Source: Caecitellus pseudoparvulus
Taxonomy: Eukaryota > Protista > Bigyra: Bicosoecida
Length of the DNA stretch: 35,798 bases
Reading direction: 5' to 3'
NCBI GenBank assembly: GCA_965644315.1
Contig: CBFFRQ010000142.1
Coordinates: forward strand, 1 to 35,798
The notes under the pieces are model-generated. The model made no database searches and had not been told where the DNA came from. It worked only from the letters and a program-made list of their open reading frames with translations. This document shows positions 541 through 31,085 of this stretch, piece by piece. How positions within the stretch are numbered: position 1 is the stretch's first letter; every line of letters begins with the position of its first letter. The position numbers were made by a program, and so were the translations under genes.

Positions 541-1942
541 TCAAATCAAGTCTTTCAGGCTCGAAAACATAGCTGCTTGCTGCCGCACAGTGTCTGGGAT
601 CCTGCGATGCCCAGTGAGGCCCAGCAGCTCACGCACGGTGTCTGTGTAGCCATTGGCGCATGCCCATCGGAAGGCGGCCTCAGGTCCACCCTCATCCGCC
701 GCATGCACATCCACCTCCCGCGCCCCAGTCAGGCCCAGCAGCTCACGCACGATATCTGTGTGGCCACTGTGGCATGCCCATAGAAAGGCGGCCTCAGGTC
801 CATCCTCATCCGCCGCATGCACATCCACCTCTCGCGCCCCAGTCAGGCCCAGCAGCTCACGTACGGTGTGTGTGTGGCCATTGCGGCATGCCCATCGGAA
901 GGCGGCCTCAGGTCCTTCATCATCCGCCGCATGCACATCCACCTCTCGCGCCCCAGTCAGGCCCAGCAGCTCACGCACGATGTCTGTGTGGCCATTGGCG
1001 CATGCCCATCGGAAGGCGGCCTCAGGTCCATCCTCATCCTCCGCATGCACATCCACCTCCGGCGCCCCAGTCAGAGCCAGCAGCTCACGCACGATGTCTA
1101 TGTGGCCATTGTCGCATGCCTCTCGGAAGGCGGCCTCAGGTCCATCCCCAGCCGCCGCGTGCACATCCACTTCCCGCGCCCCAGTCAGGCCCAGCAGCTC
1201 ACGCACGACATCTGTGTGGCCATTGTCGCATGCCTCTCGGAAGGCGGCCTCAGGTCCAGCCCCATCCGCCGCGTGCACATCCACCTCCCGCGCCCCAGTC
1301 AAGCCCAGCAGCTCACGCACGACATCTGTGTGGCCACTGTAGCATGCCCATCGGAAGGCGGCCTCAGGTCCAGCCCCATCCGCCGCATGCACATCCACCT
1401 CCCGCGCCCCGCTCAGGCCCAGCAGCTCACGCACGATGTCTGTGTGGCCCCAGCGGCATGCCCCTCGGAAGCCAGCCTCAGGTCCACCCCATGCCGCCGC
1501 ATGCACGTCCACCTCCCGCGCCCCAGTCAGGCCCAGCAGCTCACGCACGATGTCTGTGTGGCCATTGGCGCATGCCTCTCGGAAGGCGGCCTCAGGTCCA
1601 CCCTCATCCGCCGCATGCACATCCACCTCCCGCGCCCCAGTCAGGCCCAGCAGCTCACGCACGATGTCTGTGTGACCATTGTCGCATGCCACTCGGAAGG
1701 CGGCCTCAGGTCCAGCCCCATCCGCCACATGCACATCCACCTCCCGCGCCCCAGTCAGGCCCAGCAGCTCACGCACAGTGTCTATGTGGCCATTGTCGCA
1801 TGCCCATCGGAAGCCAGCCTCAGGTCGATCCCCATCCGCCGCGTGCACATCCACTTCCCGCGCCCCAGTCAGGCCCAGCAGCTCACGCACGATGTCTGTG
1901 TGACCATTGTCGCATGCCACTCGGAAGGCGGCCTCAGGTCCA
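541..1942 (-). CDS. Host ankyrin-repeat gene A, 3' part (12 repeats + RRIPD...LKDLI tail)
   Basis: Joined to 7761-11209 it gives 4851 nt, a 1616-aa ORF, with junction AADGA|GPEAAF. Confidence 0.88.
600..1942 (-). repeat. 114-bp tandem ankyrin-coding repeats (12 units)
   Basis: Unit GPEAAFRxACxxGHTDIVRELLGLTGAREVDVHAAxxx with exact 114-bp period. Confidence 0.95.
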
Positions 1943-2119
1943 CCGAGGTTGCCGGCACCCCAGCCGGCAACCATGTTTCCCGGCAGGAGGGGCGGCGGGC
2001 AGTCCCACGCTAGTGGCACAATTGTCCCCCGCCGCCCCAACGCAGAGTAGACGACGGCAGGACCGGGCATGACAAAACCAGTCATTAGCCGGCCTCGTCA
2101 CTCTCTTTCCTTTTTTTTC
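1942..2119 (+). repeat. Ngaro terminal repeat A1 (~178 bp)
   Basis: Runs from ACCGAGGTTGCCGGC to CTCTCTTTCC-T-tract. Recurs at 7423, 19945, 25424 and 30906. Confidence 0.95.
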
Positions 2120-2122
2120 GAG

Positions 2123-4205
2123 ATGGCATCGGATGATCCAGCTTCCAGCGACACGGAGGGCGGAAGCTGGGAGGACATCCACGACAAAATGATGTCTGTC
2201 AACTCCGCCAAGCAAGCCAAGGCGCTCATAACGGAGCAGGAGTTCGAGTACTGGCTGAAGTGGGCGGATTCTGAGGATTTTGGTAAGATGGAGGCCGCTT
2301 GGCGCCTCCGGGAGGTGCCCGAGGGATTCCGGGCAGATCGCATGCGATCCCTCATTGCGGGCAGAGCTTTCCGCCTCCCCGCTGACGGTGCCCCTCATCG
2401 CGCAGGCGGCTCACCACGGGGGCACGGCACGAAGCGAACCCGTCCGCGCGGTGCGAGCAGTGGCACGCCCTACGGCCCGCACCTACCCCCGCGCCCGACC
2501 CAGCCGGACGCAGTCGCAGGCGACCTCCCGCAAGATCCCGCCACAGTGCTTACGTGGTTCCTGCAGAGGGGAGCGACGGTGCCGAGCGAGGACGTCGCCG
2601 TGCAGCTGCAGTTCTACGTGGGCTTGGCAACGGAGGAGACATCGCCGTACGCCCTCTCCGCTTGGCCTCCACGGCGCTTCGCCGCATGGTGCAGACTCAA
2701 CGGTATTCCCCCCGACCTCACCCCCGACGACATCGTGATGCATTTGCAGCGGGTCCTGGAGGCCGCGCTGGCGGGCGACGACGACTTTGGCGACGACGAT
2801 GCCGGCGCCCCGTTCTTTCCCGTTTTCCCGGGCACCACACCGGATGCCGCCCGGTTACAGCCCCGTGCGGCGGCCCCGGGTCACCCCCCGGCCTCCAAGA
2901 GGCACAGGGCGGCCTATAGCCCGCAGCCCCCCTCCCCCGTGGGGCGGCGGAGCCTCGCCGGCAGTCCACCCCGAAGGCGGGTCGGCTGTTTTCGGTCACA
3001 TGGGGGAGAACAGCGGTCGGTCGTCGCCAGCCGACGAGGTACTGGTCACTGTAGGCGCGCTGCGGGTCATTGGGCCGACCGCACACCCCTCGTCGGCGGT
3101 GGCCCGGGACCGCCTGTCAGCCTTGGGGGCAGTTTTCGCTGCGGGGACCACAGACGCCTTGACCACGGTGGCTGTCGAGATGGCTGAGGCTGCTGCACGA
3201 GAGGTGCCCGCAGCAACGGGCCCAGTGCCGTCAGGTACGTTCCTGTCCCGCCAGCTCCCCCCCCACTCGCCCCGCGTGCCCGCTCCCGGCGACCCGTCCT
3301 GGCTCACAGCCCCCGGCGATGAGGTAGCCCCGCCGTCCGCGTCGGTCATGATGGACGACGCTATGGACGTAGTGACTGCTGTACGCCTGGTGCAAGGGAG
3401 GGTGGAAGTTACAGTTGACCCAACCCATCTAGTGGCAGTAACTGGGGCGGGTGCCCTGTCGGCATGCCACATGCTGGGCAACCGTGGGGGCGCTTGGTGG
3501 CTTGCTGCGATGACCAGGGACTTGCTGACGGCGCCTTCCGACGACCTCCACCGCTCCCTCCGAGCGTTCTGGTGGAAGTGGGCGTCCGAGGTGCCCGCCC
3601 TGGCAGACCAGCGGGGCCTGTGCCGAGCCATGGCGTGCGCACTCCTGATCACAATCGCAGTGCGGGCCGTGGCGCAGACCGCCGCTGCGTTGCCCGAAGG
3701 CCAGCGCAGGCGATGGGCCCAGCTGACGTGGGCCTCCTGGGTGGCCACGTTCCGCACTAACGCCACCATTGTCATGATGGCGTCGGCGACGGGGCAAGCA
3801 CTGGTGGCCAGCTCGCTGGCGCGCGAGGCATGGGCGGCCGGGGCCGCCGCCACACCGATGCCAGGTGCGGGGGGCGGCCCGGCGCAAACCCCCGCTCGTG
3901 GCCCTCCCGCGGGGCTGTACCGGCAGGACGACCCGAGCACATTCGTGTGGTGCCCCGGGTGCGTCGGATCCGACCGGCGGCGCCGGTCGCTGGCATCCTG
4001 CCCACGCCTGGCCCAGCATGTGGCCCACCTGCGCCGGACCCACACAGTCGGAGGTAAGCCCGCAGAACTTACCCAGGCGCAGGCAGTGGCCATGCTGGTG
4101 CGCCAGTGGGAGCGGAAGGTGGCATCCAAGGGACGTGACTTCCAGCGGCGCATGCAGCCCCGCGCTGTCACCACGGCCATGGTGGAGGCAGCTCTCAGCC
4201 TCTAG
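2123..4205 (+). CDS. Ngaro ORF1, putative Gag-like protein with C-terminal CxxC...HxxxxH motif; apparent frameshift in C-runs near 2884-2940
   Basis: ATG (MASDD) lies just after A1. Two overlapping ORFs (2069-3187, 2787-4205) are a single ORF in copy 2. Gag-like call is by position only. Confidence 0.75.
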
Positions 4206-6423
4206 GAGGTGGGCCGGAGCGCGGTGGTGAGAGCGACCACGGGGTACCGGGCCGTGCCCGTGGAGTGGAGGGCTGCCGCCCCGCTCTCGACAGACCACCG
4301 CGCCATGGCCGTGCTCATCGAATCAATGGTCCAGCAGCTGCATGGGGACCGTTGTTGGACTCCACCGGGGCTCTTCGAGGACATCTTGCGTGGGGGCTTG
4401 GACTGGGGCCCCCACCCCGTGGTCTCATACTGGGGTTGCCAGGAGGCCCACGCTGACGTGTGTCCCGCATGCGGCGAGACCACTTCCAGATTACGGCAGC
4501 TTGAGCGGTGCGCAGCCATGCGACTGCTCACCGTGGTCACGCTGCGCGGGTGGGACCCCGCTTGGCTGCTGTTCCGCCGCCCCCCGGCAGCGGCATCCCC
4601 GTCCTCGGCATACGTGCTGCAGCCGCACGACGAGCGGGCGGTGGCAGCGGCCTATGACGCCTTCGCGGCTGCGCGCGTGCTGCAGCCGGTCACCCCCCAG
4701 CAGCTGCAGCAGCACCGAAAGATGGGGGGCCAGCCGCTTCTGCCTTCGTTGTCACGACATGGGCCCCCCAGCCGGGCGTCAGCGACGAAGCTCTGCGACA
4801 GTGGGCTGCTGCGAACCCAGGCGAGGCGGTGCAGGCCGCCAGCTCTTCCCGCGCGCCCGCCCGCCCGAGCCGCCTGTTCCGGGCCAAGCAGCGGGTGGTG
4901 TACGATCTGGCAGCCGTCAACCAGGCCTCAGTGAGCCCCCCATTCCACTACCCCACGCTGGAGAGCTGGGCGCTGCGCCTCCCGCCGAACTCGGACTGTG
5001 TTGTCCTGGACGTGGAAGCAGGGTACACGGCCATCCCCATCGCTCCGTCGGGCGCCGGACTGTTCACCATGCTCGCCCAGGGCAGGCCAGCCTTCCGCAT
5101 GCTTCGGATGGCCTTCGGGTACAGCCCGGCCGGGGCCATTTTCTGCTTTTTTTCTGGACTTCTGGGCGCCAAGATCGAAGCGGCGTTCCCAGCAGGGCAT
5201 GTGGTTGTGTACGTAGACGACGTCGGGCTTGGGGGAGCTACGTTGGGGCCACGGCCATCGATCGTGCCCAAGATAACTCAACTGTTCGAGGACGTGGGCT
5301 TCCGGGTGTCGCGCAAGAAGACGCAAGGGCCACAGCGCGTCGTTCAGTACTTGGGGATGGTGGTCAGGTGTGCCCCGTGTGGGGTGTACCTTGAGTGTCC
5401 TCAAGCCAAACGAACTCAGCTGCGGTGGCAGCTGGCCGCGGTCCTTAATCGCCTCGGCGCTTGCTCCACCATCCCCAAGCGCGTTTTCGCCGCGGTCACA
5501 GGGCGCTTGCACGGCCTGTCGGCCGTGGTGCCCCACGCAAAACAAACGCTGTCGCTCTTGTACGACACCATGCGCACACACAAGTACCGCGTCGGCCCCC
5601 CGGCGCTCTCGTGCCTGTCCCCCCGGCGTCGCACGGGGCCCTGCGGACCCTCCTTGAGGCCCTCGGTGGGCCGTTATCGACGGGCCCGATGCGCCCGCTC
5701 TCCCCACTGTCAAGCAGGTGGCGCGCCGCCCTCTTTGGCTCGTGCGACGCGTCGGGGGAAGGCGGGCTGGGGGCAACAGTGTCGAGGTGGGCAGGGCCAG
5801 GAGAACGCACAGACTCCGCTTGGTACGCGTCCATGCGCATCCCCGGCACAGCCCCGGGCGAGGAGCTCGTGGGAGCCTCCACGATGCTGGAGCTGTACGC
5901 AATCGCCTTGGCTATGGCAATGGCGCGGCATGTTTTTCCCGAGCCGGGGCCGCTGCTGCTATGCCTAGCTGCGGACAGCCAGGCAGCGGTGGCGCTGGCG
6001 CGACGAGGGTACAGCAAGCACAGCCGTGAACTCACGCGCGTCTGCGGGGTCCTCGAGCGGGTTTCCCGCGTTTTGGACGTCCACTTGGCGCCTCGGTGGA
6101 TCCCGAGGAGCCTGAATTGGCGGGCGGACGCCCTCAGCCACCCCGAAAGGGTGGATAGCAGCACACCGGCAGCGCTCGGCCTCCCGCCAGGGCAACCAGC
6201 CGAGCTGGAGGTATCAGCAGGGGGAAGCAGCGCCGCTGAGCGGTGGCATGATGTGTCCCTAGACGTAGGGCCGTCGGGAAAGGCCGGGGCGGGCACCGCG
6301 TGGATTCACTCAGCTCAACTCTCCGTCGCCCTGCACAGACACACTCTGGATAAGGAAGCAGACCTTCTGGCAGATGATCAGGGCCATCCCCGCGTCCCCG
6401 ATCAGCAGGATTCACCAACATAG
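4206..6423 (+). CDS. Ngaro ORF2, reverse transcriptase + RNase H; apparent homopolymer frameshifts near 4724 and 5596
   Basis: RT motifs KQRVVYDLAAVN, LDVEAGY, MAFGYSPAG, YVDD (5210-5221), QYLGM. RNase H motifs CDAS, MLELYAI, ADSQAA, NWRADALS. Start uncertain: readthrough from 4206 or ATG 4305. Confidence 0.92.
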
Positions 6424-7531
6424 GCTGGCAAAGGGGACGGTGGTCAAGTACGTTCGCGCGGTTGCTGGCCTGATCAGGGCCGCTCCAGCACCCCGGGACA
6501 GGGCGCGGACCATGGTGGGCATCTTAACGGGCGGCGTGGCCGCAGGCAGATGGGCCCCCCATCGGGCGAAGCAGATCCTGGCGCAATGGGTCGGTGGTTT
6601 TAGGTATCTGGGCCTGCCAATCCCGTCGCTAGCCCCGCTGGGGCTCACAGTCGGCAGCATCTGCCGGGCAATCCGCCGGCTCCACCGAGGGAGAGGGGAG
6701 CAACACCGCCGCCCTATCAGCAAAGAACAAGTCATGGAGGCCATGAAGCGGGCATGGGACGGGCCACACCTCGGGAGGCATGCCCCAACTGCCGCCGCAG
6801 CTATCTACATCGGCTTTCATGGCATGTGCAGGCCGGGAGAGCTCCGGGGCCTGCGATGGGAGGAGTTGCACTTCGGGCGGGCGGGCCCCCTGCAGTGGGT
6901 GGAGGCCAGGGTCACGGATAAAACGCACCTGAGTGCAAACCGCCACATCCAGGTGGTGCGCCAGGCCGAGTGGGCGGGGGCCTTCGACCGCCTCCGGGAG
7001 CAGGCCCGGGACAAGCGGGGAAGCCTGCTCCCAAGGTGGGCGTGGCTCAGCCTGCAAGGCATCCTGAAGGCTGTAGCGGGCGTGTCCTTGGCCCACCTGA
7101 GACCCGGGGGCAATATGTTCTGGACAGGCCGGGCCCCCGACGTCTTGGTGGAGCACGCGGCGGGCTGGGCGGCTGGCTCCCCCACCCGGGCACGATACTA
7201 CACCCAGGGGGGAGGGGGCGAGGCTGTGGCACGAGGCCATGACACCCAGGGGAGGAAGCAAGCATTGAAAAGTATTGGCGGGTGCCGCAAGGAGGCGTCC
7301 CCTCCCCCAAGAGATGCAGCGAGCCCTGGTGGCCGCTGGCATAGAGGGGGGAGGGGACGGCCTCGAGGCGGGCCCAGTTCAATGCATTTCGATTGCCACG
7401 CACAACGCACCAACACGAGGGAACCGAGGTTGCCGGCACCCCAGCCGGCAACCATGTTTCCCGGCAGGAGGGGCGGCGGGCAGTCCCACGCTAGTGGCAC
7501 AATTGTCCCCCGCCGCCCCAACGCAGAGTAG
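6374..7531 (+). CDS. Ngaro ORF3, tyrosine recombinase
   Basis: GFHGMCRPGEL (Arg I), DKT (Lys), AHLRPGG (Arg II), AGW, RYY (Tyr). Overlaps the ORF2 end by 50 nt. True stop may be near 7242 (see copy 3). Confidence 0.9.
   Translation: MIRAIPASPISRIHQHRLAKGTVVKYVRAVAGLIRAAPAPRDRARTMVGILTGGVAAGRWAPHRAKQILAQWVGGFRYLGLPIPSLAPLGLTVGSICRAIRRLHRGRGEQHRRPISKEQVMEAMKRAWDGPHLGRHAPTAAAAIYIGFHGMCRPGELRGLRWEELHFGRAGPLQWVEARVTDKTHLSANRHIQVVRQAEWAGAFDRLREQARDKRGSLLPRWAWLSLQGILKAVAGVSLAHLRPGGNMFWTGRAPDVLVEHAAGWAAGSPTRARYYTQGGGGEAVARGHDTQGRKQALKSIGGCRKEASPPPRDAASPGGRWHRGGRGRPRGGPSSMHFDCHAQRTNTREPRLPAPQPATMFPGRRGGGQSHASGTIVPRRPNAE
7274..7423 (+). repeat. Ngaro repeat B1 (150 bp)
   Basis: ATTGGCGGGTGCC...CACGAGGGAA. 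Matches 7611-7760, 25275-25424 and 30757-30906. Confidence 0.95.
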
Positions 7532-7601
7532 ACGACGGCAGGACCGGGCATGACAAAACCAGTCATTAGCCGGCCTCGTCACTCTCTTTCCTTTTTTTTT
7601 C
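7423..7601 (+). repeat. Ngaro repeat A2
   Basis: Direct copy of A1 abutting B1, followed by the short linker TTTTTCTCG and then B2. Confidence 0.95.
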
Positions 7602-7610
7602 TTTTTCTCG

Positions 7611-7760
7611 ATTGGCGGGTGCCGCAAGGAGGCGTCCCCTCCCCCAAGAGATGCAGCGAGCCCTGGTGGCCGCTGGCATAGAGGGGGGAGGGGACGGCCT
7701 CGAGGCGGGCCCAGTTCAATGCATTTCGATTGCCACGCACAACGCACCAACACGAGGGAA
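7611..7760 (+). repeat. Ngaro terminal repeat B2
   Basis: Direct copy of B1. Host ankyrin sequence resumes at 7761. Confidence 0.95.
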
Positions 7761-9242
7761 GCCCCATCCGCCGCATGCACATCCACCTCCCGCGCCCCGC
7801 TCAGGCCCAGCAGCTCACGCACGATGTCTGTGTGGCCCCAGCGGCATGCCCCTCGGAAGCCAGCCTCAGGTCCACCCCATGCCGCCGCATGCACGTCCAC
7901 CTCCCGCGCCCCAGTCAGGCCCAGCAGCTCACGCACGATGTCTGTGTGGCCATTGTCGCATGCCTCTCGGAAGGCGGCCTCAGGTCCATCCCCATCCGCC
8001 GCATGCACATCCACCTCCCGCGCCCCGCTCAGGCCCAGCAGCTCACGCACGATGTCTGTGTGGCCATTAGCGCATGCCCATCGGAAGGCGGCCTCAGGTC
8101 CACCCCATGCCGCCACATGCACATCCACCTCCCGCGCCCCAGTGAGAGTCAGCAGCTCACGCACGATGTCTTTGTGGCCATTGGCGCATGCCCATCGGAA
8201 GGCGGCCTCAGGTCCATCCCTATCCGCCACATGCACATCCACCTCCCGCGCCCCAGTCAGGCCCAACAGCTCACGCACAGTGTCTATGTGGCCATTGTCG
8301 CATGCCCATCGGAAGCCAGCCTCAGGTCGATCCCCATCCGCCGCGTGCACATCCACTTCCCGCGCCCCAGTCAGGCCCAGCAGCTCACGCACGACATCTG
8401 TGTGGCCATTAGCGCATGCCTCTCGGAAGGCGGCCTCAGGTCCACCCCATGCCGCCACATGCACATCCACCTCCCGCGCCCCAGTCAGGCCCAGCAGCTC
8501 ACGCACGATGTCTGTGTGGCCATTCTCGCATGCCCATCGGAAGGCGGCCTCAGGTCCATCCCCAGCCGCCGCGTGCACATCCACCTCCCGCGCCCCAGTG
8601 AGGCCCAACAGCTCACGCACGATGTCTGTGTGGCCCATGCGGCATGCCTGTCGGAAGCCAGCCTCAGGTCGATCCCGTGCCGCCGCGTGCACATCCACCT
8701 CCCGCGCCCCAGTCAGGCCCAGCAGCTCACGCACGATGTCTGTGTGGCCACTGTAGCATGCCCATCGGAAGGCGGCCTCAGGTCCATCCCTATCCGCCAC
8801 ATGCACATCCACCTCCCGCGCCCCGCTCAGCCCCAGCAGCTCGCGCACGATGTCTGTGTGGCCTCTGGAGCATGCCTCTCGGAAGCCAGCCTCAGGTCCA
8901 CCCCATGCCGCCACGTGCACATCCACCTCCCGCGCCCCAGTGAGAGTCAGCAGCTCACGCACGATGTCTGTGTGGCCATTCTCGCATGCCTCTCGGAAGG
9001 CGGCCTCAGGTCCACCCCATGCCGCCACATGCACATCCACCTCCCGCGCCCCAGTCAGGCCCAACAGCTCACGCACGATGTCTGTGTGGCCCCAGCGGCA
9101 TGCCCATCGGAAGCCAGCCTCAGGCCCATCCTCATCTGCCGCGTGCACATCCACCTCCCGCGCCCCAGTCAGGCCCAGCAGCTCACGCACGATGTCTGTG
9201 TGGCCATAGCGGCATGCGACTCGGAAAGCGGCCTCAGGGCCC
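7761..9242 (-). repeat. 114-bp tandem ankyrin-coding repeats (13 units)
   Basis: 13 x 114 = 1482 bp, same consensus. Confidence 0.95.
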
Positions 9243-11209
9243 TGTTTGCAAACCCCAAACCAGATCTGGACATTTCCTTCCGCATGTACATCTACTGCCT
9301 CATCCCCCGTCAAAGACAGCAGCTCACGCACTCTCGCAAGCTCCCCATCCTTGCACGCTGCAACAAACGCTGTGGTGTTCTCCTCGCTGAACTTCACTTG
9401 CTTGGCAGCAACCTCCGACTCTGTAGCCGGTACAGCCTCTGCGTCAGCTGTCTCCGCCTGACCTGCCGCAAGAGCTGCCTGTCCCCCATCAAGCACACCC
9501 CGCACCGCACTCTCCACACCTTCCAGATGATCCACTCCACCCCCACTTCCTTCACACGCCTTCGCATATGCACCCATGCAGCAACCACTCCCTCCCCGCG
9601 CCAACACCTCCAACGCGCCCGACAATGCATGTTCGCCACCTTCGCCGCTGCCGACGAAACTTGACACAGCGCCCGATCCGCCACCCATCGCACCACCGTC
9701 CACACCAAGCACCTCACGCAGCACACTCAACACACCACCACCCTCGTCGTCACGGCTGCCGCCATAAGATCGATCTTTCCCCCACACACCGCCACATGCA
9801 CTCAACACCACCTCACACTCACCCCCATCCAGTGCGCCCACCAGATCACTCACACTGCCACTCCCCACACCCACCACCACGAAGCTCCCCACACCAACAC
9901 CACTCAGACTCACTCCACACGCCTCAGCCACGGCACACACACCCAGCACCCTCACAGCCACACGCTGCTTCACCTCCAGCCCAACATCGCCCCACGCTTC
10001 ATCCTCCAGGAACACCCTCAGCGGCCACCCCGCCTCACACTGCACCTGCACCGTCACCATGCTCCTCTGGCCGAGTGGCTCATCAGCTCGACCCGCTGTA
10101 CAACTGTGAGCCAGTGCTGCTCTGCGTGGTGTCTGTGCCATCCGCGGCAGTCCATGGGCGATGCGAGCCGCTTCGCCACGCTTCACGGCCCCAACACTCG
10201 TGGCAAGTGCTGTCGCACCCGCCTCCACATTCGCTGTCCACTGCTCCACATCCACAGCTCCACCCACATCCTCATCCACGATCTCGCTCCGTCCACTGTA
10301 CACACTCACGTCATTGCCGTTCAGACACTCCAAGCCGCCCGACAAGTCCAACCCACCCACAGCCCTCACCTTCCGACCACTCATCACCGGCGCACACCCC
10401 AACAGCCCACGCAGCTCCTCCACCGCACTCGCTGCACACTCCAAGTGCTCCGCAGCACTCTCACTCGCCAGATCGCCTGCCGCCTCGCCTCGCAGCCACT
10501 CAGCTTGCTGACGCATGCCAGCCAGAGCCGCATCCACCGCTGCTTCGCCACCAGCATCATGTGTGACTGGGCCACCCTCACCAGCCACATCCACATCGGC
10601 CCTCTCGAAGCCTTGCCACCATCGCGTCAGATCAGCCAGCGCACCCTCCACGTTCACACCGGCCCGCACACTGCCCCAAGCACCCACAATGGCGCCCCAC
10701 AGTGCGTCGCCCTCCGGCACTGCATCCACATCCACACCAGACACCGCTGTATGAAGCACATCCACCGCGGTGAAGCACCGGAACGACAGGTACTGCAGCG
10801 CAGCACACACGCCACCTCGCTCACGCTGCCCCGCCAACAGCCCAGCCTGCTCCAACAGCGCACTCCCTGCATCACGCAGGGCCGCCTCCAGCTCCACCAG
10901 GCTCATGGCCGATGGGGTGTCACTTGCAGCCGGCGCTTCGCCACGCCCAATGGCTGCCAGTCCTCGCAGTGCTGGGCCGTGGTCCATGACGCTGCCCGGC
11001 AGGCACTTCATCTTGCGCAAGCATGCCGCCACCGCCTCAGCTTGCGTGCTGTCGATGCCTGCAGTGGGTGGTGCACTGCCCTCCATAGCTTGTCCTGTTG
11101 CTGCTGCCTGTGGCGTGGGGCACGGCGCTGTGTGCCGTGCAGTGTTGGCGACATGCTTTGTCGCAAGTGCTGGCGAAAGCGAGGTGCCATGCCCACACCC
11201 ACGCACCAT
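7761..11209 (-). CDS. Host ankyrin-repeat gene A, 5' part (N-terminal domains, cap repeat, 13 repeats); interrupted by Ngaro
   Basis: Open frame, paralogous to 13385-15622. Alternative start MEGSA at 11086. Confidence 0.88.
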
Positions 11210-11821
11210 GGCGATGGACGGCAGGGGGTCTAGTCAGGCGTAGCTGTGCTGTAAAGCCGACTCCTGCGGGGTGATGGCAGTGGGCAGTTGCATTGGTGTG
11301 GCGGGGAGGCGCTGTCGCAGCTGACGTGTGCGAGGGAGCAACTTCCGCACTTGCACCAGTGCACGCTCACCTGTGGCGGCCAAGACTGGAGACAAGGCAG
11401 AAGACACGCTGATGTCCGGATGCCCAATGAACCCACAAGTAAGAGTGGGAAATGGATGAGGAGCAATTTGGTGCAAGACATGGGAAGGGTGCCCCGCTCC
11501 GCTCGATGCGGTGCCCATCATCTCAGCAAGAAAGGTGCGGAACAAGCTATCTGGACATCCGCAAGATCCCCGTTCGAGTGCTGACGGGAGCTGCGTCAAG
11601 GCGCGGAGTGCGATAGAGGGGGTCGACTCGTGCGCTCCGAGCAGCGCTGTCCATACACTGCACTGGGCGGGGCAAAACCGCCCGCTCTGCTGTGCCCGCA
11701 CTTTTGCGTGTAAGGGTTGCGGCCTTGTCGTGTCTGGCAGTGTGACTCCGTCACACTTCCTTGCCCACACGATATTCATTGGCGTGGTGGCGACTGCTCT
11801 CTCATACGCCACAACAAAGCC

Positions 11822-12282
11822 ATGGCGCTGTCCAGCGCCTCCATGGGGGCACCCGTCTTCCAGCTGGTGCCCCTTGCAGGTGGTACACTGGCTGTTTCAG
11901 GCGGTGGCAGCTCCAAGACTGGCATTGAGAATGCTCTGGTGCGCAGGCGGGCATTCGACGGCTGCGAGTGGCGTGCAAATTCCGCAACCGCCGCTGCTGT
12001 GCTCCACAGACCATGGTGCACGTGGAGAACACCGGCGCCAACAAAGTGGAGCTGGCGAAAGGCACTGCCTTCCTCTCGGGCAGCACCTTCATCACGCACG
12101 TGGCAGTGTCGGAGGACGTGCGTGCCGGCGCAGCCGACGTGGCAACCACTTTTACACCTACCTCGGCGACTTTCGCAGGGTAAGCGCGTGGCAGGGGCGG
12201 CTGGAGACAGCATCGTCGTGTTCAACCGCGACGGCGAGAGTGGCAGGTACGGGAGCCGGCAGCCAGGTGGCTGGGCGCCGCC
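11822..12282 (+). pseudogene. Unidentified coding-like fragment (MALSSASMGAPVFQLV.../MVHVENTGANKVEL...); copy at 16232-16695
   Basis: Protein-like segments in different frames, ATG in gccATGg context, possible GC-AG intron near 11964-12009. Confidence 0.3.
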
Positions 12283-13200
12283 CTGAACACCGTGGCAGTG
12301 GTGAGCGTGGGGAGCTGCCCCCTGCCGCCTGGCGTGGCGGCGTGGCTGGCTGGGGATGAGCGCCTGTTCGCCCTGGCCCGGGCAGCCTGTGTGCAGCTGG
12401 TGGACGGAGCGCTGAGCAGGGAGCAGGGCACGGCTCTGGCGCCGGTGCTGCTGTTCACGGTGGTGGGGGTGTACGCCACAACGCCGCCCAGCTCCCGCAA
12501 CACCATCCCGCCCCACCTCGCCCAGCGCACTGCTCGCTTGGCCGGCAAGTGCACCCTGCTCGTGGGTGGCGTGGAGGTGGTAGGCGGCAAGGCGGTGCAG
12601 CGTGACAGCCCGCCCTCCACACACACCGCCCACAACGACGGAGTTGCGCGGGACCCGCTGTTCTGGCTGCTGCAGCGCCTCAGCAACACGGCAGTGCAGC
12701 AGGGCGGGCCGGCGGCCACCACGGGCCTGAACGTGTTCGGGGCCATGGCTGGGCAGGTGCCACAGGCGGACCTGCAGCGCTACGTGGTGCCAGTGGCGCG
12801 GACAGTGTTCCGCACTGTGCAGGCGGCAGAGCACGTGGCCAGCGACCCCCGCCTGGCCGACGCGCCATCCTGGTCAGAGCAAGCTCAGCAGGCGGCCGCT
12901 GCAGCGGAGGCAGGTGGCTTGGCATCGGAGGTCATGGAGGCGGTGCAGGCTGCCATGGGCGCAGATGTGTTCCTGACGGCGTACAACGGCGAGCGGCGAG
13001 TCAGGGCAGCGGCGAAGGAGCGGCGGGCGAAGCAGGTGGTGCAGTAGGCGGTGGTGAACCCGGCAGCAGCTGCCGCACGCCCGAGTCGGAAGTCACAGGC
13101 GAAGAATCGCCACGTGGCGATGCGCATGGACATGGTGAAGGTGCTGCGGAGGCGGTGGTGGGAAGGGCAAGAAGCGTGCGAGGGAGGCGCCAGAGGGGTT
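12283..13200 (+). pseudogene. UTP20: UTP20-like C-terminal fragment, unit 2; premature TAG at 13045
   Basis: AACVQL..LSREQG..VLLF, LFWLLQRLS, NVFGAMA..LQRYVVPVARTVFR, LASEVMEAVQ..FLTAYN, AVVNP. TAG here where the sister copies have GAG. Confidence 0.65.
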
Positions 13201-13384
13201 GATGTGTGGAGGGGAGTGCAATGCAGGTGTGGGAGCGGGGGGGCGTTGAAGTGGTGGTGAGGTGTGCTGTGTGGTGTGTGGAGGAGGGACGTGTATGCTG
13301 GTATGGAGGTGTGGCGGGTGTGCTGGCCTGATGTGGGGACCAGGTTTGCCACATGGTGCATTAGTCTGTGCTTGGGGCCTGGGG

Positions 13385-15622
13385 CTAAATCAAGTCTTTC
13401 AGGCTCGAAAACTTAGCTGCTTGCTGCCGCACAGTGTCTGGGATTCTGCGAACGTCAATCAGGCCCAACAGCTCACGCACGATGTCTGTGTGGCCCCAGC
13501 GGCATGCTCCTCGGAAGCCAGCCTCAGGTCCATCCTCATCCGCCGCATGCACATCCACCTCCCGCGCCCCAGTCAGGCCCAGCAGCTCACGCACGATGTC
13601 TGTGCGGCCCCTGGCGCATGCCACTCGGAAAGCGGCCTCAGGGCCCTGTTTGTGAAACCTAGGCCTCACCTCAACTCTTCCTTCCACATGCACATCCACT
13701 GCCTCATCCCCCGTCAATGCAAGCAGCTCACGCACTCTCGCAAGCTCCCCATCCTCGCACGCTGCTACAAACGCTGTGGTGTTCTCCTCGCTGAACTTCA
13801 CTTGCTCGGCAGCAACCTCCGACTCTGTAGCCGGTACAGCCTCTGCGTCAGCTGTCTCCGCCTGCCCTGCCGCATCAGCTGCATGCTCCTCATCGAGCAC
13901 ACCCCGCACAGCACTTTCCACACCTGACAGGCGCCCCACTCCACCCCCACTTCCCTCACATGCCATCGCATATGCACCCATGCAGCAACCACTCCCTCCC
14001 CTCCCCAACACCTCCAACGCGCTCGTCAGTTCAAGCTTTACACCTTCACCACTGCCCACGAAAAGTGACCCAACGCCCGGTCCGCCACCCAACGCACTAC
14101 CTCCTACACCAAGCACCTCACGCAGCACACTCAACACACCACCACCCTCATCGTCACCGCTGCCGCCATCAGAGCCACCTGTGCCCCTCACACCGCCACA
14201 CGCAGTCAGCACCACCTCACACCCGCCCCTATTCAGCGCCCCCACCAGATCACCCACACTGCCACTCCCCACACCCACCACCACGAAGCTCCCCACACAC
14301 ACGCCACTCACATCCACCCCACATGCCTCCGCCACCGCACACACACCCAGCACCCTCACAGCCACGCGCTGCTTCACATCCTGCCCAACATCGCCCCACG
14401 CTTCATCCTCCAGGAACGCCCTCAGCGGCCACCCCGCCTCACACTGCACCTGCACTGTGACACTGCTCCTCTCGCCAACCGGCTCATCAGCTCTGCCAGC
14501 TGAAGTACTGTGTGCTAGTGCTGCTCTGCGTGGTGTCTGTGCCATCCGAGGCAGGCCATGCGCGATGCGAGTCGCTTCGCCACGCTTCACGGCGCCAACA
14601 CTCGTGGCAAGCGCCCTCGCACCCGCCTCCACACTCCCTGCCCACTGCCCCACATCCACAGCTCCACCCACATCTTCATCCACGATCTCAACCCGTCCAC
14701 TGTACACACTCACATCCTTGCCGTTCAGGCACTCCAAGCCGCCCGACAAGTCCAACCCACCCACAGCCTTCACCTTCCGACCACTCATCACCGGCGCACA
14801 CCCCAGCAGCTCACGCAGCTCCTCCACTGCACTCGCAGCACTCTCCAAGTGCTCCGCAGCACTCTCACTCCTCAGCTCGCCTGCCGCCTCGCCTCGCAGC
14901 CAACCAGCCTGCTGCCGCATGCCAGCCAGAGCCGCATCCGCCGCTGCCTCGCCACCGGCATCATGTGTGACTGGGCCGCCCTCACCAGCTTCATCTACAT
15001 CTGCCCCCTCGAAGCCCTGCCACCATCGCGTCAGGTCAGCCAGCGCACCCTCCACGTTCACACCGGCCCGCACACTGCCCCAAGCACCCACAATGGCGCC
15101 CCACAGTGCATCAACCCCCGGCACTGCATCGGCACTCAAACCAGATGCCGCCTGATGAAGCACATCCACCGCGGTAAAACACCGGAACGACAGGTACTGC
15201 AGCGCAGCACACACACCACCTCGCTCACGCTGCCCCGCCAACAGCCCAGCCTGCTCCAGCAGCGCACTCCCCGCATCACGCAGTGTAGCTTCCAGCTCCA
15301 CCAGGCTCATGGCCGATGGGGTGTCATGACCTGCAGCAGGCGCTTCGCCACGCCCAATGGCTGCCAGTCCTCGCAGTGCTGGGCCGTGGGCCATGACGCT
15401 GCCCGGCAAGCACTTCATCTTGCGCAAGCATGCCGCCACAACCTCAGCCTGTGCGTCGTCGATGCCTGCAGTGGGCGCTGCACTGCCCTCCATGGCTTGT
15501 CCTGTTGTTGCTGCCTGTGGCGTAGGGGAGGGACAGGGCGCACTGTGCCGTGGTGTGTGTGGGACACGCTTTGTCGCAAGTGCTGGCGAAAGCGAGGCGC
15601 CATGCCCACATCCACGCACCAT
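13385..15622 (-). CDS. Host ankyrin-repeat gene B (intact, 745 aa, cap + 2 repeats)
   Basis: Uninterrupted intronless ORF, colinear with gene A. Alternative start at 15493. Confidence 0.88.
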   Translation of the reverse strand: MVRGCGHGASLSPALATKRVPHTPRHSAPCPSPTPQAATTGQAMEGSAAPTAGIDDAQAEVVAACLRKMKCLPGSVMAHGPALRGLAAIGRGEAPAAGHDTPSAMSLVELEATLRDAGSALLEQAGLLAGQRERGGVCAALQYLSFRCFTAVDVLHQAASGLSADAVPGVDALWGAIVGAWGSVRAGVNVEGALADLTRWWQGFEGADVDEAGEGGPVTHDAGGEAAADAALAGMRQQAGWLRGEAAGELRSESAAEHLESAASAVEELRELLGCAPVMSGRKVKAVGGLDLSGGLECLNGKDVSVYSGRVEIVDEDVGGAVDVGQWAGSVEAGARALATSVGAVKRGEATRIAHGLPRMAQTPRRAALAHSTSAGRADEPVGERSSVTVQVQCEAGWPLRAFLEDEAWGDVGQDVKQRVAVRVLGVCAVAEACGVDVSGVCVGSFVVVGVGSGSVGDLVGALNRGGCEVVLTACGGVRGTGGSDGGSGDDEGGGVLSVLREVLGVGGSALGGGPGVGSLFVGSGEGVKLELTSALEVLGRGGSGCCMGAYAMACEGSGGGVGRLSGVESAVRGVLDEEHAADAAGQAETADAEAVPATESEVAAEQVKFSEENTTAFVAACEDGELARVRELLALTGDEAVDVHVEGRVEVRPRFHKQGPEAAFRVACARGRTDIVRELLGLTGAREVDVHAADEDGPEAGFRGACRWGHTDIVRELLGLIDVRRIPDTVRQQAAKFSSLKDLI

Positions 15623-16695
15623 GGCAATGGATGGCAGGGGGTCTAGTCAGGCGTAGCTGTGCTGTAAAGCCGACTCCTGCGGGGTGATGGCAGTGGACGC
15701 GTGTGTTGGTGCTGTGGGAAGGCGCTGTCGCAGCTGACGTGCGAGGGTGCAACTTCCGCACTTGCACCAGTGCACGCTCACCTGTGGCGGCCAGAAGTGG
15801 AGACAAGGCACAATGCACGCTGATGTGCAAATGTCCCGTGGCATCACAGGTGTTTGGGATATAAAAGAGGTGCATTTCGGTGGCAGGCATCTCAAAATGT
15901 GTGCAGGTCCGCTCGATACGGTGCGCATCATCTCAGCAAGAAAGGTGCGGAACTAGCTATCTGGACATCCGCAAGATCCCCGTTCGAGTGCTGACGGGAG
16001 CTGCGCCAAGGCGCGGAGTGCGATAGAGGGGGTCGACTCGTGCGCTCCGAGAAGCGCTGTCCGTGCACGGCACTGGGCAGGGCAAAACCGCCCGCTTTGC
16101 TGTGCCCGCACTTTTGCGTGTAAGGGTTGCGGCCTTGTCGTGTCTGGCAGTGTGGCTCCGTCACCCTTCCTTGCCCACACGATATTCATTGGCGTGGTGG
16201 CGATTGCTCTGCCCCAAGCCACAACAAAGCCATGGCGCTGTCCAGCGCCTCCATGGGGGCACCCGTCTTCCAGCTGGTGCCCCTCGCAGGTGGTACTCTG
16301 GCTGTTTCAGGTGGTGGCAGCTCCAAGACTGGCATTGAGAATGCCCTGGTGCGCAGGCGGGCATTCGACGGCTGCGAGTGGCGTGCAAATTCCGCAACCG
16401 CCGCTGCTGTGCTCCCCAGACCATGGTGCACGTGGAGAACACCGGCGCCAACAAAGTGGAGCTGGCGAAAGGCACTGCCTTCCTCTCGGGCAGCACCTTC
16501 ATCACGCACGTGGCAGTGTCGGAGGACGTGCGTGCCAGCGCAGCCGACGTGGCAACCACTTTTGCACCTTCCTCGGCGACTTTCGCAGGGCAAGCGTGTG
16601 GCAGGGGCGGCTGGAGACAGCATCGTCGTGTTCAACCGCGACGGCGAGAGTGGCAGGTACGGGAGCCGGCGGCAGCCAGGTGGTTGGGCGCCGTC

Positions 16696-17600
16696 CTGAA
16701 CACTGTGGCAGTGGCGAGCGTGGGGAGCTGCCCCCCACCACCTGGCGTGGCGGCGTGGCTGGCTGGGTATGAGCGCCTGTTCGCCCTGGCCCGGGCAGCC
16801 TGTGTGCAGCTGGCGGACAGGACGCTGAGCAGGGAGCAGGGCACGGCTCTGGCGCCGGTGCGGCTGTTCACGGCGGTGGGGCTGTACGCCACGACGCTGC
16901 CCAGCTCCCGCAACACCAACCCGCCCCACCTCGCCGAGCGCAGTGCTCGCTTGGCCGGCAAGTGCACCCTGCTCGTGGGTGGCATGGAGGTGGTGGGCGG
17001 CAAGGCGGTGCAGCGTGACAGCCCGCCCTCCACACACACCGCCCATGACGACGGCGGTGGTGCGCGTGACCCGCTGTTCTGGCTGCTGCAGCGCCCCAGC
17101 AACACGGCAGTGCAGCAGGGCGGGCCGGCGGCCCCCACGGGCCTGAACGTGTTCGGGGCCATGGCTGATCAGGTGCCGCAGGCGGACCTGCAGCAGTACG
17201 TGGTGCCGGTGGCACGGGCAGTGTTCCGCACTGTGCAGGCGGCAGAGCACGTGGCCAGCGACCCCCGCCTGGCCGACGCGCCATCCTGGTCAGAGGAAGG
17301 CACAGCAGGCGGCCACTGCAGCAGAGGCAGGTCCCTTGGCGTGGGAGGTCATGGAGGTGGTGCAGGCTGCCATGGGTGCAGATGCGTTCCTGACGGCGTA
17401 CAACGGCGAGCGGCGAGTCAGGGCAGCGGCGAAGGAGCGGCGGGCGAAGCAGGTGGCGCAGGAGGCGGTGATGAACCCGGCAGCAGCTGCCGCACGCCGC
17501 AGTCGGAAGGCACAGGCGAAGAAGCGCCATGTGGCGAAGCGCATGGACAAGCTGAAGGTGCTGCGAGGCGGTGGTGGGAAGGGCTGGAAGCGGGTATGGG
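16696..17600 (+). pseudogene. UTP20: UTP20-like C-terminal fragment, unit 3; frameshift near 17298
   Basis: Same motifs, split between ORFs 16378-17634 and 17336-17797. Confidence 0.65.
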
Positions 17601-17806
17601 AGGCGTTGGTGCGGTGCGGAGGGGAGTACAGTGAAGGTGAGGGGGGGGGGGGGTGCGTGGGAATGGTGATGAGGTGTGATGCGGTGTGGTGTGTGCGGTG
17701 GGTTGTGGTGCGGTATGGGCAGAGGTGGAGGTGGGGCAGGTGTGCTGGTCTGAGGTGCGTGTCAGGTTTGCCACATGGTGCATTAGTCTGTGCTTGAAGC
17801 TTGGGA

Positions 17807-19945
17807 TCAAATCAACTCCTTCAAGCTCTCAAACTTGGCGGCTTGCTGTCTCACGCTGTCCGGGATTCTGCGATGCCCAGTGAGGCCCAGCAGCTCACGC
17901 ACGACATCTGTGTGGCCATTGACGCATGCCCATCGGAAGCCAGCCTCAGGTTCACCCCGATCCGCCGCATGCACATCCACCTCCCGCGCCCCAGTGAGAG
18001 CCAGCAGCTCACGCACGATGTCTGTGTGGCCACGCTCGCATGCCCATCGGAAGGCGGCCTCAGCTCTACCCCGATCCGCCGCATGCACATCCACCTCCCG
18101 CGCCCCAGTCAGGCCCAGCAGCTCACGCACGATGTCTGTGCGGCCCCTGGCGCATGCCCATCGGAAGCCAGCCTCAGGCCCATCCCCATCCGCCGCATGC
18201 ACATCCACCTCCCGCGCCCCATTCAGGCCCAGCAGCTCACGCACGATGTCTGTGCGGCCATTGGCGCATGCCCATCGGAAGCCAGCCTCAGGCCCATACC
18301 TATCCGCCGCATGCACATCCACCTCCCGTGCGCCGCTCAGGCCCAGCAGCTCACGCACGATGTCTGTGCGGCCCCTGGCGCATGCCACTCGGAAAGCGGC
18401 CTCAGGGCCTTCTCTATAGAATCTAGGCCTCACCTCAACATTTCCTTCCACATGCACATCCACTGCCTCATCCCCCGTCAATGCCAGCAACTCGCGCACT
18501 CTCGCAAGCTCCCCATCCTTGCACGCTTCCACAAACGCTGTGGTGTTCTCCTCGCTGAACTTCACTTGCTCGGCAGCAACCTCCGACTCTGTAGCCGGTA
18601 CAGCCTCTGCGTCAGCTGTCTCCGCTTGACCTGCCGCACCAGCTGCCTGCTCACCATCAAGCACACCCCGCACCGCACTTTCCACACCTTCCAGACGCCC
18701 CACTCTACCCCCGCTTCCCTCACACGCCATCGCATATGCACCCATGCAGCAACCACTCCCTCCTCGCCCCAACACCTCCAGCGCGCCCGACAGTGCACGC
18801 TCATCACCTTCACCACTGCTCACAAAGCTTGACCCAACGCCCGAATCGCCACCCAACGCATCACCTCCCACACCAAGCACCTCATGCAGCACATTCAGCA
18901 CACAACCACCCTCACAGCTGCCACCATCTGCGCCACCTGTACCCCACACACTGCCACATGCACTCAACACCACCTCACACCCACCCCCATCCAGTGCGCC
19001 CACCAGATCACCCACACTGCCACTCCCCACACCCACCACAACGAAGCTCCCCACACCCACACCAGCCAGACTCACTCCACATGCCTCCGCCACAGCACAC
19101 ACACCCAGCACCCTCACAGCCACGCGCTGCTTCACCTCCAGTCCAACATCGCCCCACCCTTCATCCTCCAGGAACACTCTTAACGGCCACCCCGCCTCAC
19201 ACTGCACCTGCACCGTCACCATGCTCCTCTGACCGAGTGGCTCATCAGCTCGGCCAGCTGAAGTACTGTGTGCCAGTGCTGCTCTGCGTGGAGTCTGTGC
19301 CATCCGCGGCAGTCCATGGGCGATGCGAGCCGCTTCGCCACGCTTCACAGCGCCAACACTCGTGGCAAGGGCTGTTGCACCCGCCTCCACACTCCCTGCC
19401 CACTGCTCTACATCCCCAGCTCCACCCACATCCTCATCCACGATCTCAACCCGTCCACTGTACACACTCACATCCTTGCCATTCAGGCACTCCAAGCCGC
19501 CCGACAAGTCCAGCCCACCTACAGCCCTCACCTTCCGGCCACTCATCACCGGCGCACACCCCAACAGCCCACGCAGCTCCTCCACCGCACTCGCTGCACA
19601 CTCCAAGTGCTCCACAGCACTCTCACTCCTCAGCTCGCCTGCCGCCTCGCCTCGCAACCACTCAGCCTGCTGACGCATGCCAGCCAGAGCCGCATCCGCC
19701 GCTGCCTCGCCACCAGCATCATGTGTGACGGGGTCACCCTCACCAGCCACATCCACATCCACCCCCTCAAAGCCTTGCCACCATCGCGTCAGATCAGCCA
19801 GCGCACCCTCCACATTCACACCGGCCCGCACACTGCCCCAAGCACCCACAATGGCGCCCCACAGTGCGTCGCCCTCCGGCACTGCATCGGCACCCACACC
19901 AGACACCGCCTGATGCAGCACATCCACCGCGGTGAAGCACCGGAA
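17807..19945 (-). CDS. Host ankyrin-repeat gene C, 3' part (cap + 5 repeats); interrupted by the Ngaro concatemer, 5' part outside window
   Basis: Homology to genes A and B stops at FRCFTAVD, exactly at the Ngaro junction. Confidence 0.85.
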   Translation of the reverse strand, partial: FRCFTAVDVLHQAVSGVGADAVPEGDALWGAIVGAWGSVRAGVNVEGALADLTRWWQGFEGVDVDVAGEGDPVTHDAGGEAAADAALAGMRQQAEWLRGEAAGELRSESAVEHLECAASAVEELRGLLGCAPVMSGRKVRAVGGLDLSGGLECLNGKDVSVYSGRVEIVDEDVGGAGDVEQWAGSVEAGATALATSVGAVKRGEAARIAHGLPRMAQTPRRAALAHSTSAGRADEPLGQRSMVTVQVQCEAGWPLRVFLEDEGWGDVGLEVKQRVAVRVLGVCAVAEACGVSLAGVGVGSFVVVGVGSGSVGDLVGALDGGGCEVVLSACGSVWGTGGADGGSCEGGCVLNVLHEVLGVGGDALGGDSGVGSSFVSSGEGDERALSGALEVLGRGGSGCCMGAYAMACEGSGGRVGRLEGVESAVRGVLDGEQAAGAAGQAETADAEAVPATESEVAAEQVKFSEENTTAFVEACKDGELARVRELLALTGDEAVDVHVEGNVEVRPRFYREGPEAAFRVACARGRTDIVRELLGLSGAREVDVHAADRYGPEAGFRWACANGRTDIVRELLGLNGAREVDVHAADGDGPEAGFRWACARGRTDIVRELLGLTGAREVDVHAADRGRAEAAFRWACERGHTDIVRELLALTGAREVDVHAADRGEPEAGFRWACVNGHTDVVRELLGLTGHRRIPDSVRQQAAKFESLKELI

Positions 19946-20125
19946 CCGAGGTTGCCGGCACCCCAGCCGGCAACCATGTTTCCCGGCAGGAGGGGCGGCG
20001 GGCAGTCCCACGCTAGTGGCACAATTGTCCCCCGCCGCCCCAACGCAGAGTAGACGACGGCAGGACCGGGCATGACAAAACCAGTCATTAGCCGGCCTCG
20101 TCACTCTCTTTCCTTTTTTTTCGAG

Positions 20126-22207
20126 ATGGCATCGGATGATCCAGCTTCCAGCGACACGGAGGGCGGAAGCTGGGAGGACATCCACGACAAAATGATGTCT
20201 GTCAACTCCGCCAAGCAAGCCAAGGCGCTCATAACGGAGCAGGAGTTCGAGTACTGGCTGAAGTGGGCGGATTCTGAGGATTTTGGTAAGATGGAGGCCG
20301 CTTGGCGCCTCCGGGAGGTGCCCGAGGGATTCCGGGCAGATCGCATGCGATCCCTCATTGCGGGCAGAGCTTTCCGCCTCCCCGCTGACGGTGCCCCTCA
20401 TCGCGCAGGCGGCTCACCACGGGGGCACGGCACGAAGCGAACCCGTCCGCGCGGTGCGAGCAGTGGCACGCCCTACGGCCCGCACCTACCCCCGCGCCCG
20501 ACCCAGCCGGACGCAGTCGCAGGCGACCTCCCGCAAGATCCCGCCACAGTGCTTACGTGGTTCCTGCAGAGGGGAGCGACGGTGCCGAGCGAGGACGTCG
20601 CCGTGCAGCTGCAGTTCTACGTGGGCTTGGCAACGGAGGAGACATCGCCGTACGCCCTCTCCGCTTGGCCTCCACGGCGCTTCGCCGCATGGTGCAGACT
20701 CAACGGTATTCCCCCCGACCTCACCCCCGACGACATCGTGATGCATTTGCAGCGGGTCCTGGAGGCCGCGCTGGCGGGCGACGACGACTTTGGCGACGAC
20801 GATGCCGGCGCCCCGTTCTTTCCCGTTTTCCCGGGCACCACACCGGATGCCGCCCGGTTACAGCCCCGTGCGGCGGCCCCGGGTCACCCCCGGCCTCCAA
20901 GAGGCACAGGGCGGCCTATAGCCCGCAGCCCCCCTCCCCCGTGGGGCGGCGGAGCCTCGCCGGCAGTCCACCCCGAAGGCGGGTCGGCTGTTTTCGGTCA
21001 CATGGGGGAGAACAGCGGTCGGTCGTCGCCAGCCGACGAGGTACTGGTCACTGTAGGCGCGCTGCGGGTCATTGGGCCGACCGCACACCCCTCGTCGGCG
21101 GTGGCCCGGGACCGCCTGTCAGCCTTGGGGGCAGTTTTCGCTGCGGGGACCACAGACGCCTTGACCACGGTGGCTGTCGAGATGGCTGAGGCTGCTGCAC
21201 GAGAGGTGCCCGCAGCAACGGGCCCAGTGCCGTCAGGTACGTTCCTGTCCCGCCAGCTCCCCCCCCACTCGCCCCGCGTGCCCGCTCCCGGCGACCCGTC
21301 CTGGCTCACAGCCCCCGGCGATGAGGTAGCCCCGCCGTCCGCGTCGGTCATGATGGACGACGCTATGGACGTAGTGACTGCTGTACGCCTGGTGCAAGGG
21401 AGGGTGGAAGTTACAGTTGACCCAACCCATCTAGTGGCAGTAACTGGGGCGGGTGCCCTGTCGGCATGCCACATGCTGGGCAACCGTGGGGGCGCTTGGT
21501 GGCTTGCTGCGATGACCAGGGACTTGCTGACGGCGCCTTCCGACGACCTCCACCGCTCCCTCCGAGCGTTCTGGTGGAAGTGGGCGTCCGAGGTGCCCGC
21601 CCTGGCAGACCAGCGGGGCCTGTGCCGAGCCATGGCGTGCGCACTCCTGATCACAATCGCAGTGCGGGCCGTGGCGCAGACCGCCGCTGCGTTGCCCGAA
21701 GGCCAGCGCAGGCGATGGGCCCAGCTGACGTGGGCCTCCTGGGTGGCCACGTTCCGCACTAACGCCACCATTGTCATGATGGCGTCGGCGACGGGGCAAG
21801 CACTGGTGGCCAGCTCGCTGGCGCGCGAGGCATGGGCGGCCGGGGCCGCCGCCACACCGATGCCAGGTGCGGGGGGCGGCCCGGCGCAAACCCCCGCTCG
21901 TGGCCCTCCCGCGGGGCTGTACCGGCAGGACGACCCGAGCACATTCGTGTGGTGCCCCGGGTGCGTCGGATCCGACCGGCGGCGCCGGTCGCTGGCATCC
22001 TGCCCACGCCTGGCCCAGCATGTGGCCCACCTGCGCCGGACCCACACAGTCGGAGGTAAGCCCGCAGAACTTACCCAGGCGCAGGCAGTGGCCATGCTGG
22101 TGCGCCAGTGGGAGCGGAAGGTGGCATCCAAGGGACGTGACTTCCAGCGGCGCATGCAGCCCCGCGCTGTCACCACGGCCATGGTGGAGGCAGCTCTCAG
22201 CCTCTAG
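20126..22207 (+). CDS. Ngaro ORF1 (uninterrupted, 693 aa from MASDD)
   Basis: Single open frame 20072-22207. Confidence 0.8.
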   Translation: MASDDPASSDTEGGSWEDIHDKMMSVNSAKQAKALITEQEFEYWLKWADSEDFGKMEAAWRLREVPEGFRADRMRSLIAGRAFRLPADGAPHRAGGSPRGHGTKRTRPRGASSGTPYGPHLPPRPTQPDAVAGDLPQDPATVLTWFLQRGATVPSEDVAVQLQFYVGLATEETSPYALSAWPPRRFAAWCRLNGIPPDLTPDDIVMHLQRVLEAALAGDDDFGDDDAGAPFFPVFPGTTPDAARLQPRAAAPGHPRPPRGTGRPIARSPPPPWGGGASPAVHPEGGSAVFGHMGENSGRSSPADEVLVTVGALRVIGPTAHPSSAVARDRLSALGAVFAAGTTDALTTVAVEMAEAAAREVPAATGPVPSGTFLSRQLPPHSPRVPAPGDPSWLTAPGDEVAPPSASVMMDDAMDVVTAVRLVQGRVEVTVDPTHLVAVTGAGALSACHMLGNRGGAWWLAAMTRDLLTAPSDDLHRSLRAFWWKWASEVPALADQRGLCRAMACALLITIAVRAVAQTAAALPEGQRRRWAQLTWASWVATFRTNATIVMMASATGQALVASSLAREAWAAGAAATPMPGAGGGPAQTPARGPPAGLYRQDDPSTFVWCPGCVGSDRRRRSLASCPRLAQHVAHLRRTHTVGGKPAELTQAQAVAMLVRQWERKVASKGRDFQRRMQPRAVTTAMVEAALSL

Positions 22208-25532: not shown

Positions 25533-25604
25533 ACGACGGCAGGACCGGGCATGACAAAACCAGTCATTAGCCGGCCTCGTCACTCTCTTTCCTTTTTTTT
25601 CGAG

Positions 25605-30725: not shown

Positions 30726-31085
30726 CACCCAGGGGAGGAAGCAAGCATTGAAAAGTATTGGCGGGTGCCGCAAGGAGGCGTCCCCTCCCCCAAGAGATGC
30801 AGCGAGCCCTGGTGGCCGCTGGCATAGAGGGGGGAGGGGACGGCCTCGAGGCGGGCCCAGTTCAATGCATTTCGATTGCCACGCACAACGCACCAACACG
30901 AGGGAACCGAGGTTGCCGGCACCCCAGCCGGCAACCATGTTTCCCGGCAGGAGGGGCGGCGGGCAGTCCCACGCTAGTGGCACAATTGTCCCCCGCCGCC
31001 CCAACGCAGAGTAGACGACGGCAGGACCGGGCATGACAAAACCAGTCATTAGCCGGCCTCGTCACTCTCTTTCCTTTTTTTCGAG

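Follow-up and report, generated by a model that had tools for sequence, protein, structure and literature searches.

Positions 1 to 35,798 of contig CBFFRQ010000142.1 from the bicosoecid protist Caecitellus pseudoparvulus (NCBI GenBank assembly GCA_965644315.1), the stretch of DNA analysed here in full and referred to as the window, contain three tandem copies, A, B and C, of one (−)-strand gene belonging to a family that is real, conserved and unannotated. The product consists, in this order, of a bundle of helices, a predicted kinase fold and an ankyrin array, of which the first two are conserved and the third varies in repeat number and at five positions within the repeat. In gene A (11209 to 541; residues numbered as in P0015, window 11044 to 9500, 515 residues) a bundle of six helices (residues 1–149; 10598–11044) is followed by a two-helix hairpin (residues 164–214; 10403–10555) that adjoins the predicted protein-kinase fold (residues 215–501; 9542–10402), which is without catalytic residues. 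The translation continues with a linker rich in Ala and Glu and a divergent first ankyrin repeat (9245–9541), after which come 25 near-identical repeats of 38 residues, tabulated by position. Repeats 1–13 lie at 7760–9244 (Pfam Ank_2, E 1.8e-54); the rest and the stop codon lie at 541–1941, beyond a 5.8-kb inserted element, in a frame matching that of the part before it, so that gene A, once the element is taken out, reads through 1616 codons, 25 repeats included, without an internal stop. Gene B (13385–15622, 745 residues) is uninterrupted, shares 87% identity with gene A in the N-terminal region and has two repeats after the divergent first, while gene C (17807–19944) has five; its bundle is cut by a retrotransposon array, and its first ~145 codons fall outside the window.

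An earlier note, made from the sequence alone, had read seven motifs in the middle region as a dead kinase fold, and all seven are found in order in gene A. The structure model of this region is bilobal, with a beta-sheet and helix alpha-C in the N-lobe and a helical C-lobe, as in protein kinases; neither the disorder nor the unrelated fold that would speak against a pseudokinase was seen in it. The nominal best structural match was the MLKL pseudokinase, at ranks 1, 2, 5, 6, 7 and 9, but tied with FGFR, ALK and EphA2 within 1 Z. We assigned the kinase register by eye from secondary structure and motif spacing, the canonical motifs being standard ones or taken from PMC4718504 (papers cited by PMC number are drawn on here in excerpt). 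On this inferred register conservation peaks at the hinge (residues 333–342), where 21 of 22 sequences have Trp340. The HRD positions, after alpha-E, read Leu-variable-Gly, an Asp occurring in one row of 20, Ser replaces the catalytic-loop Asn in 20 of 21, and Ala-Cys-Ser/Gly stands at the DFG positions, where none of 20 rows has Asp, so that the absence of the catalytic aspartates reported from gene A extends to the family. The glycine-rich loop is absent from the family alignment. One reading of the earlier note was wrong: GAVKR had been taken for the VAVK/VAIK motif of beta-3, an assignment that the secondary structure of the model and the family alignment led us to reject, there being no position at residues 236–258, the presumed beta-3 region, with Lys in more than six of 21 rows. 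As read from the alignment, all three catalytic residues are lost across the family, more than in MLKL, and from these losses we infer that the domain is without catalysis and probably without nucleotide binding. P0029 and P0039, the latter outside the alignment, have kept Asp where the catalytic loop is inferred to place it, their other catalytic residues being gone. A conserved extra helix lies between predicted beta-7 and beta-8 (9824–9853, residues 398–407).

Structure models and family alignment together support the view that the middle domain is a pseudokinase, and the family as an unannotated and very divergent pseudokinase family. It is very improbable that modelling has produced a spurious kinase fold and that the middle domain is of another kind, an explanation that can draw on the low identity to kinases (6–14%), on Foldseek E-values that all exceed 0.001 and on a model alignment of only 13 rows. 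Profile comparison of the kinase part with one bacterial family, 75 cyanobacterial Ser/Thr kinases, likewise gave an hhalign score of 14.0, at the level of 20 column shuffles (11.4–18.8), the narrow template family making this a weak test. No Pfam kinase family was matched among the 13 or 21 aligned rows, and a sequence search of PDB returned no hit below E 0.23.

The third part of the protein behaves differently from the first two. The 26 internal repeats share mean identities of 88% (nucleotide) and 82% (protein), and five of the 38 repeat positions are strongly variable, giving 22 different codes; four of the five match turn and helix-end sites that are randomised in designed ankyrin binders. 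At these five positions the ratio of non-synonymous to synonymous change (dN/dS) is 5.5 in pairwise comparison against 0.36 elsewhere, for sites picked after seeing the data, and 1.5–1.6 against 0.42 when changes are minimised, a value derived from three synonymous changes, so that diversifying selection is suggested only. Between gene copies, dN/dS is 0.18–0.40 for the helical domain and 0.26–0.37 for the kinase. This pattern bears on the idea that viral or bacterial proteins that target kinases are lured by the dead kinase fold, with the ankyrins as adaptor, a role that has been proposed for the tandem kinase-pseudokinase resistance proteins of plants. Such plant kinase-fusion proteins exist, and complete loss of catalytic residues with retention of the fold would fit a decoy; here, however, it is the repeat array that varies fast and not the kinase, and we consider a decoy improbable. 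Near-identical repeats with few hypervariable sites, in variable number, constitute high internal conservation, judged here by identity, and together with nearby transposons they are described as hallmarks of fungal NLR sensors (PMC13449251).

Relatives were sought with a 13-sequence profile among 1.84 billion representatives. This returned 19 proteins, all at E <1e-30, and nothing between E 1e-30 and 1e-3, and on these sequence matches the bundle-kinase proteins are a small closed family. Identity to the query ranges from 32 to 87%; 13 of the relatives span nearly the full profile and the remaining six are of 92–377 residues. Ank_2 was matched in 13 of the 19 (alignment A4), two of which also match Sel1: in P0012 (nine stretches) and P0021 (one weak stretch, after an Ala/Glu-rich stretch) Sel1 stands in place of most ankyrins, which indicates that the sensor end is exchangeable. 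P0022 stops after the kinase part, and in P0024 (1608 residues) the bundle-pseudokinase pair is C-terminal, preceded by 1100 residues without a Pfam match, and there is no ankyrin array. In a tree of 18 rows, from which six short fragments were left out, the window copies cluster with P0005–P0007, and the two rows that lack ankyrins, P0022 and P0024, form a separate pair, P0024 with a long branch of its own. Two more word-index searches brought in a single partial protein, P0039, labelled Symbiodinium sp. KB8; as the KB8 assembly also has mavirus-like genes (PMC10120064), the label may not give its true host. No relatives were found in the metagenome and viral contigs, the two contig collections scanned with the family. 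The N-terminal region matched no Pfam family, no PDB sequence below E 0.23 and nothing usable in ESM Atlas, and a later PDB profile search returned ankyrins alone because its alignment contained ankyrins.

Of the MLKL-like layout proposed in the earlier note, the order stood, the models placing helical bundle, two helices and kinase fold in succession with the hairpin in the position of the MLKL brace, but the expected 4HB/HeLo match to the N-terminus was not obtained. Among the entries listed by a structure search with the bundle, MLKL, HeLo, RPW8, KEN and HEPN were absent, which does not exclude them, and among the structural matches listed none was to the MLKL brace. The bundle is possibly a new helical domain. 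These results lend some weight to a scaffold or adaptor of ILK type, in which the bundle would combine with the pseudokinase into a single rigid module for protein binding and deliver whatever the ankyrins hold to a constant partner (an active kinase, a ligase or a membrane complex); it would have no killing domain and might still serve defence. No pore-forming domain was matched by the bundle, the joint model of bundle and kinase is better ordered than the bundle alone (predicted template modelling score, pTM, 0.83 vs 0.64), the two occur together in the full-length matches, and in P0024 the bundle is embedded far inside a long chain, where a membrane helix at its N-terminus would not be free to act. 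Multi-copy tandem arrays of near-identical, variable repeats are nevertheless unexpected for housekeeping scaffolds, such repeats being rare outside ATPase-containing proteins and enriched with NLR-type ATPases (PMC13449251), and a scaffold seems to us rather unlikely.

Each gene copy is preceded by a spacer of 2.17 kb that was duplicated along with it (11210–13384, 90% identical to 15623–17806 and 89% to 1–540), gene and spacer making up a 4.5-kb tandem unit. The spacers hold interrupted reading frames (11929–13260 and 16378–17634, + strand) without a match in Pfam or PDB; a suspected likeness to a ribosome-biogenesis protein was unsupported on checking and dropped. The element that splits the ankyrins of gene A (1942–7759, + strand) is a retrotransposon of Ngaro layout, with split repeats in the order A1-open reading frames (ORFs)-B1A2B2 and a reverse transcriptase (RVT_1, E 6e-8), inserted without target duplication. 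No Pfam match was obtained for a tyrosine recombinase ORF, recombinase-like motifs being visible by eye in 6374–7531. At least three copies of the same element lie head-to-tail at 19945–35798 (+ strand), neighbouring copies sharing the A repeat; the four copies are 99.8–99.9% identical, so that the insertions are recent. Both insertion sites, of the single element and of the array, are inside copies of the bundle-kinase-ankyrin gene family. Ngaro elements of Cafeteria burkhardae are similar in size (~6 kb), GC-richness, A1-ORFs-B1A2B2 layout and reverse transcriptase (PMC8547959), a likeness judged by general layout; those in the window differ in sitting in host genes and building a head-to-tail array. 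The locus could be a decaying or passively amplified segment, in which unequal crossing-over without selection varies the repeats of the tandem unit and the kinase fold persists as a dead remnant. Interruption of two of the three copies by young retrotransposons and amplification of the spacer with the gene would fit, but bundle and kinase are under purifying selection between copies, a dN/dS below 0.4 already weakening this account, gene B is intact, and relatives down to 32% identity keep open frames and conserved motifs, so that we regard it as quite improbable. Near-identical DNA occurs in metagenomes from the sea and in coded isolate runs; in four sequencing runs variant pieces in thousands, on short contigs from which no copy number or expression is readable, cover the whole window and are consistent with many copies of the locus. 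Among the sequence collections listed as matching the window there was no RNA dataset.

Our current reading is that this tandem family, combining bundle, predicted dead kinase and variable ankyrin array, is a single-chain receptor for non-self, to which we assign a probability of about 0.5. From the arrangement described above we infer ligand binding, switching, output and a role in defence, an immune or cell-death function being suggested by analogy with variable repeats. The ankyrins would capture a foreign protein, with repeat shuffling resetting specificity; the pseudokinase, for which no ATP binding is predicted, would take the place of the ATPase of NLRs and serve as a conformational latch or for dimerisation; and once ligand is bound the N-terminal bundle would be set free as output. 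As with MLKL, the most likely output would be that membranes are damaged and the infected cell dies, and this step is the weakest of the proposal: we hold it to be doubtful, and an MLKL-type executioner role is unproven. Unlikely, too, is the fullest version, in which necroptosis-style one-chain receptors are expanding in a marine protist and set hypervariable ankyrins on an MLKL-like latch and killer bundle, without an NLR ATPase or upstream kinase, for defence against giant viruses or bacteria. How protists recognize and resist infection is largely an open question. A survey of 67 protists detected no necroptosis homologues by sequence (PMC7539657), and sequence searches are blind to the present family. 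In the openly accessible literature searched, mainly by title and abstract, no protist family combining bundle, pseudokinase and ankyrins was found. If the receptor reading is true, a receptor made of one chain, its sensor open to reshuffling, can use a pseudokinase where NLRs have their ATPase; even without a killing bundle, there remain an unannotated, very divergent pseudokinase family and possibly a new helical domain.

As closest systems we group with MLKL the plant MLKL-like proteins, of which wheat Pm13 is reportedly one, and the fungal HELL-kinase proteins. RIPK4/ANKK1 and ILK also fuse a kinase or pseudokinase to ankyrin repeats, but have no N-terminal bundle, have fixed repeats and single-copy genes, and RIPK4 is an active kinase; ILK further shares the Ser in place of the catalytic-loop Asn (PMC4718504). 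MLKL has the same succession of bundle, two helices and pseudokinase at comparable lengths, the kinase starting at ~214 in the model and ~191 in MLKL, and supplies the nominal best match noted above. It differs in that six helices precede the hairpin here, in a bundle unmatched to 4HB/HeLo, in the extra beta-7/beta-8 helix and C-terminal repeat array found here, the array having no counterpart in MLKL, and in retaining the beta-3 Lys, not conserved here, with ATP binding without cations (PMC4718504). Fungal NLRs with repeats of high internal conservation (HNWD, NACHT-ANK and ‘all-in-one’ HeLo-NLRs) share the N-terminal helical domain, the central switch and C-terminal near-identical repeats with few hypervariable positions, variable number and transposons nearby (PMC13449251, PMC12881547). 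Their central domain is a NACHT or NB-ARC ATPase, whereas here it matches kinases by structure, and no NACHT or NB-ARC Pfam family was matched in the gene products or relatives. RNase L, too, carries an ankyrin sensor, a pseudokinase and a third domain on one chain in innate defence (PMC4718504). Its ANK-pseudokinase-nuclease order is the reverse of that found here, where the ankyrins are C-terminal. RNase L also binds ATP, its nuclease domain finds no match here, and its ankyrins are not known to be hypervariable. Since there is no STAND ATPase and no beta-3 Lys, the bundle is unmatched and the ankyrins are C-terminal, we place the family with none of MLKL, the NLRs or RNase L; if our reading is right, it would by analogy work in the manner of all three, that is, of MLKL, of the all-in-one fungal HeLo-NLRs (PMC12881547) and of RNase L.
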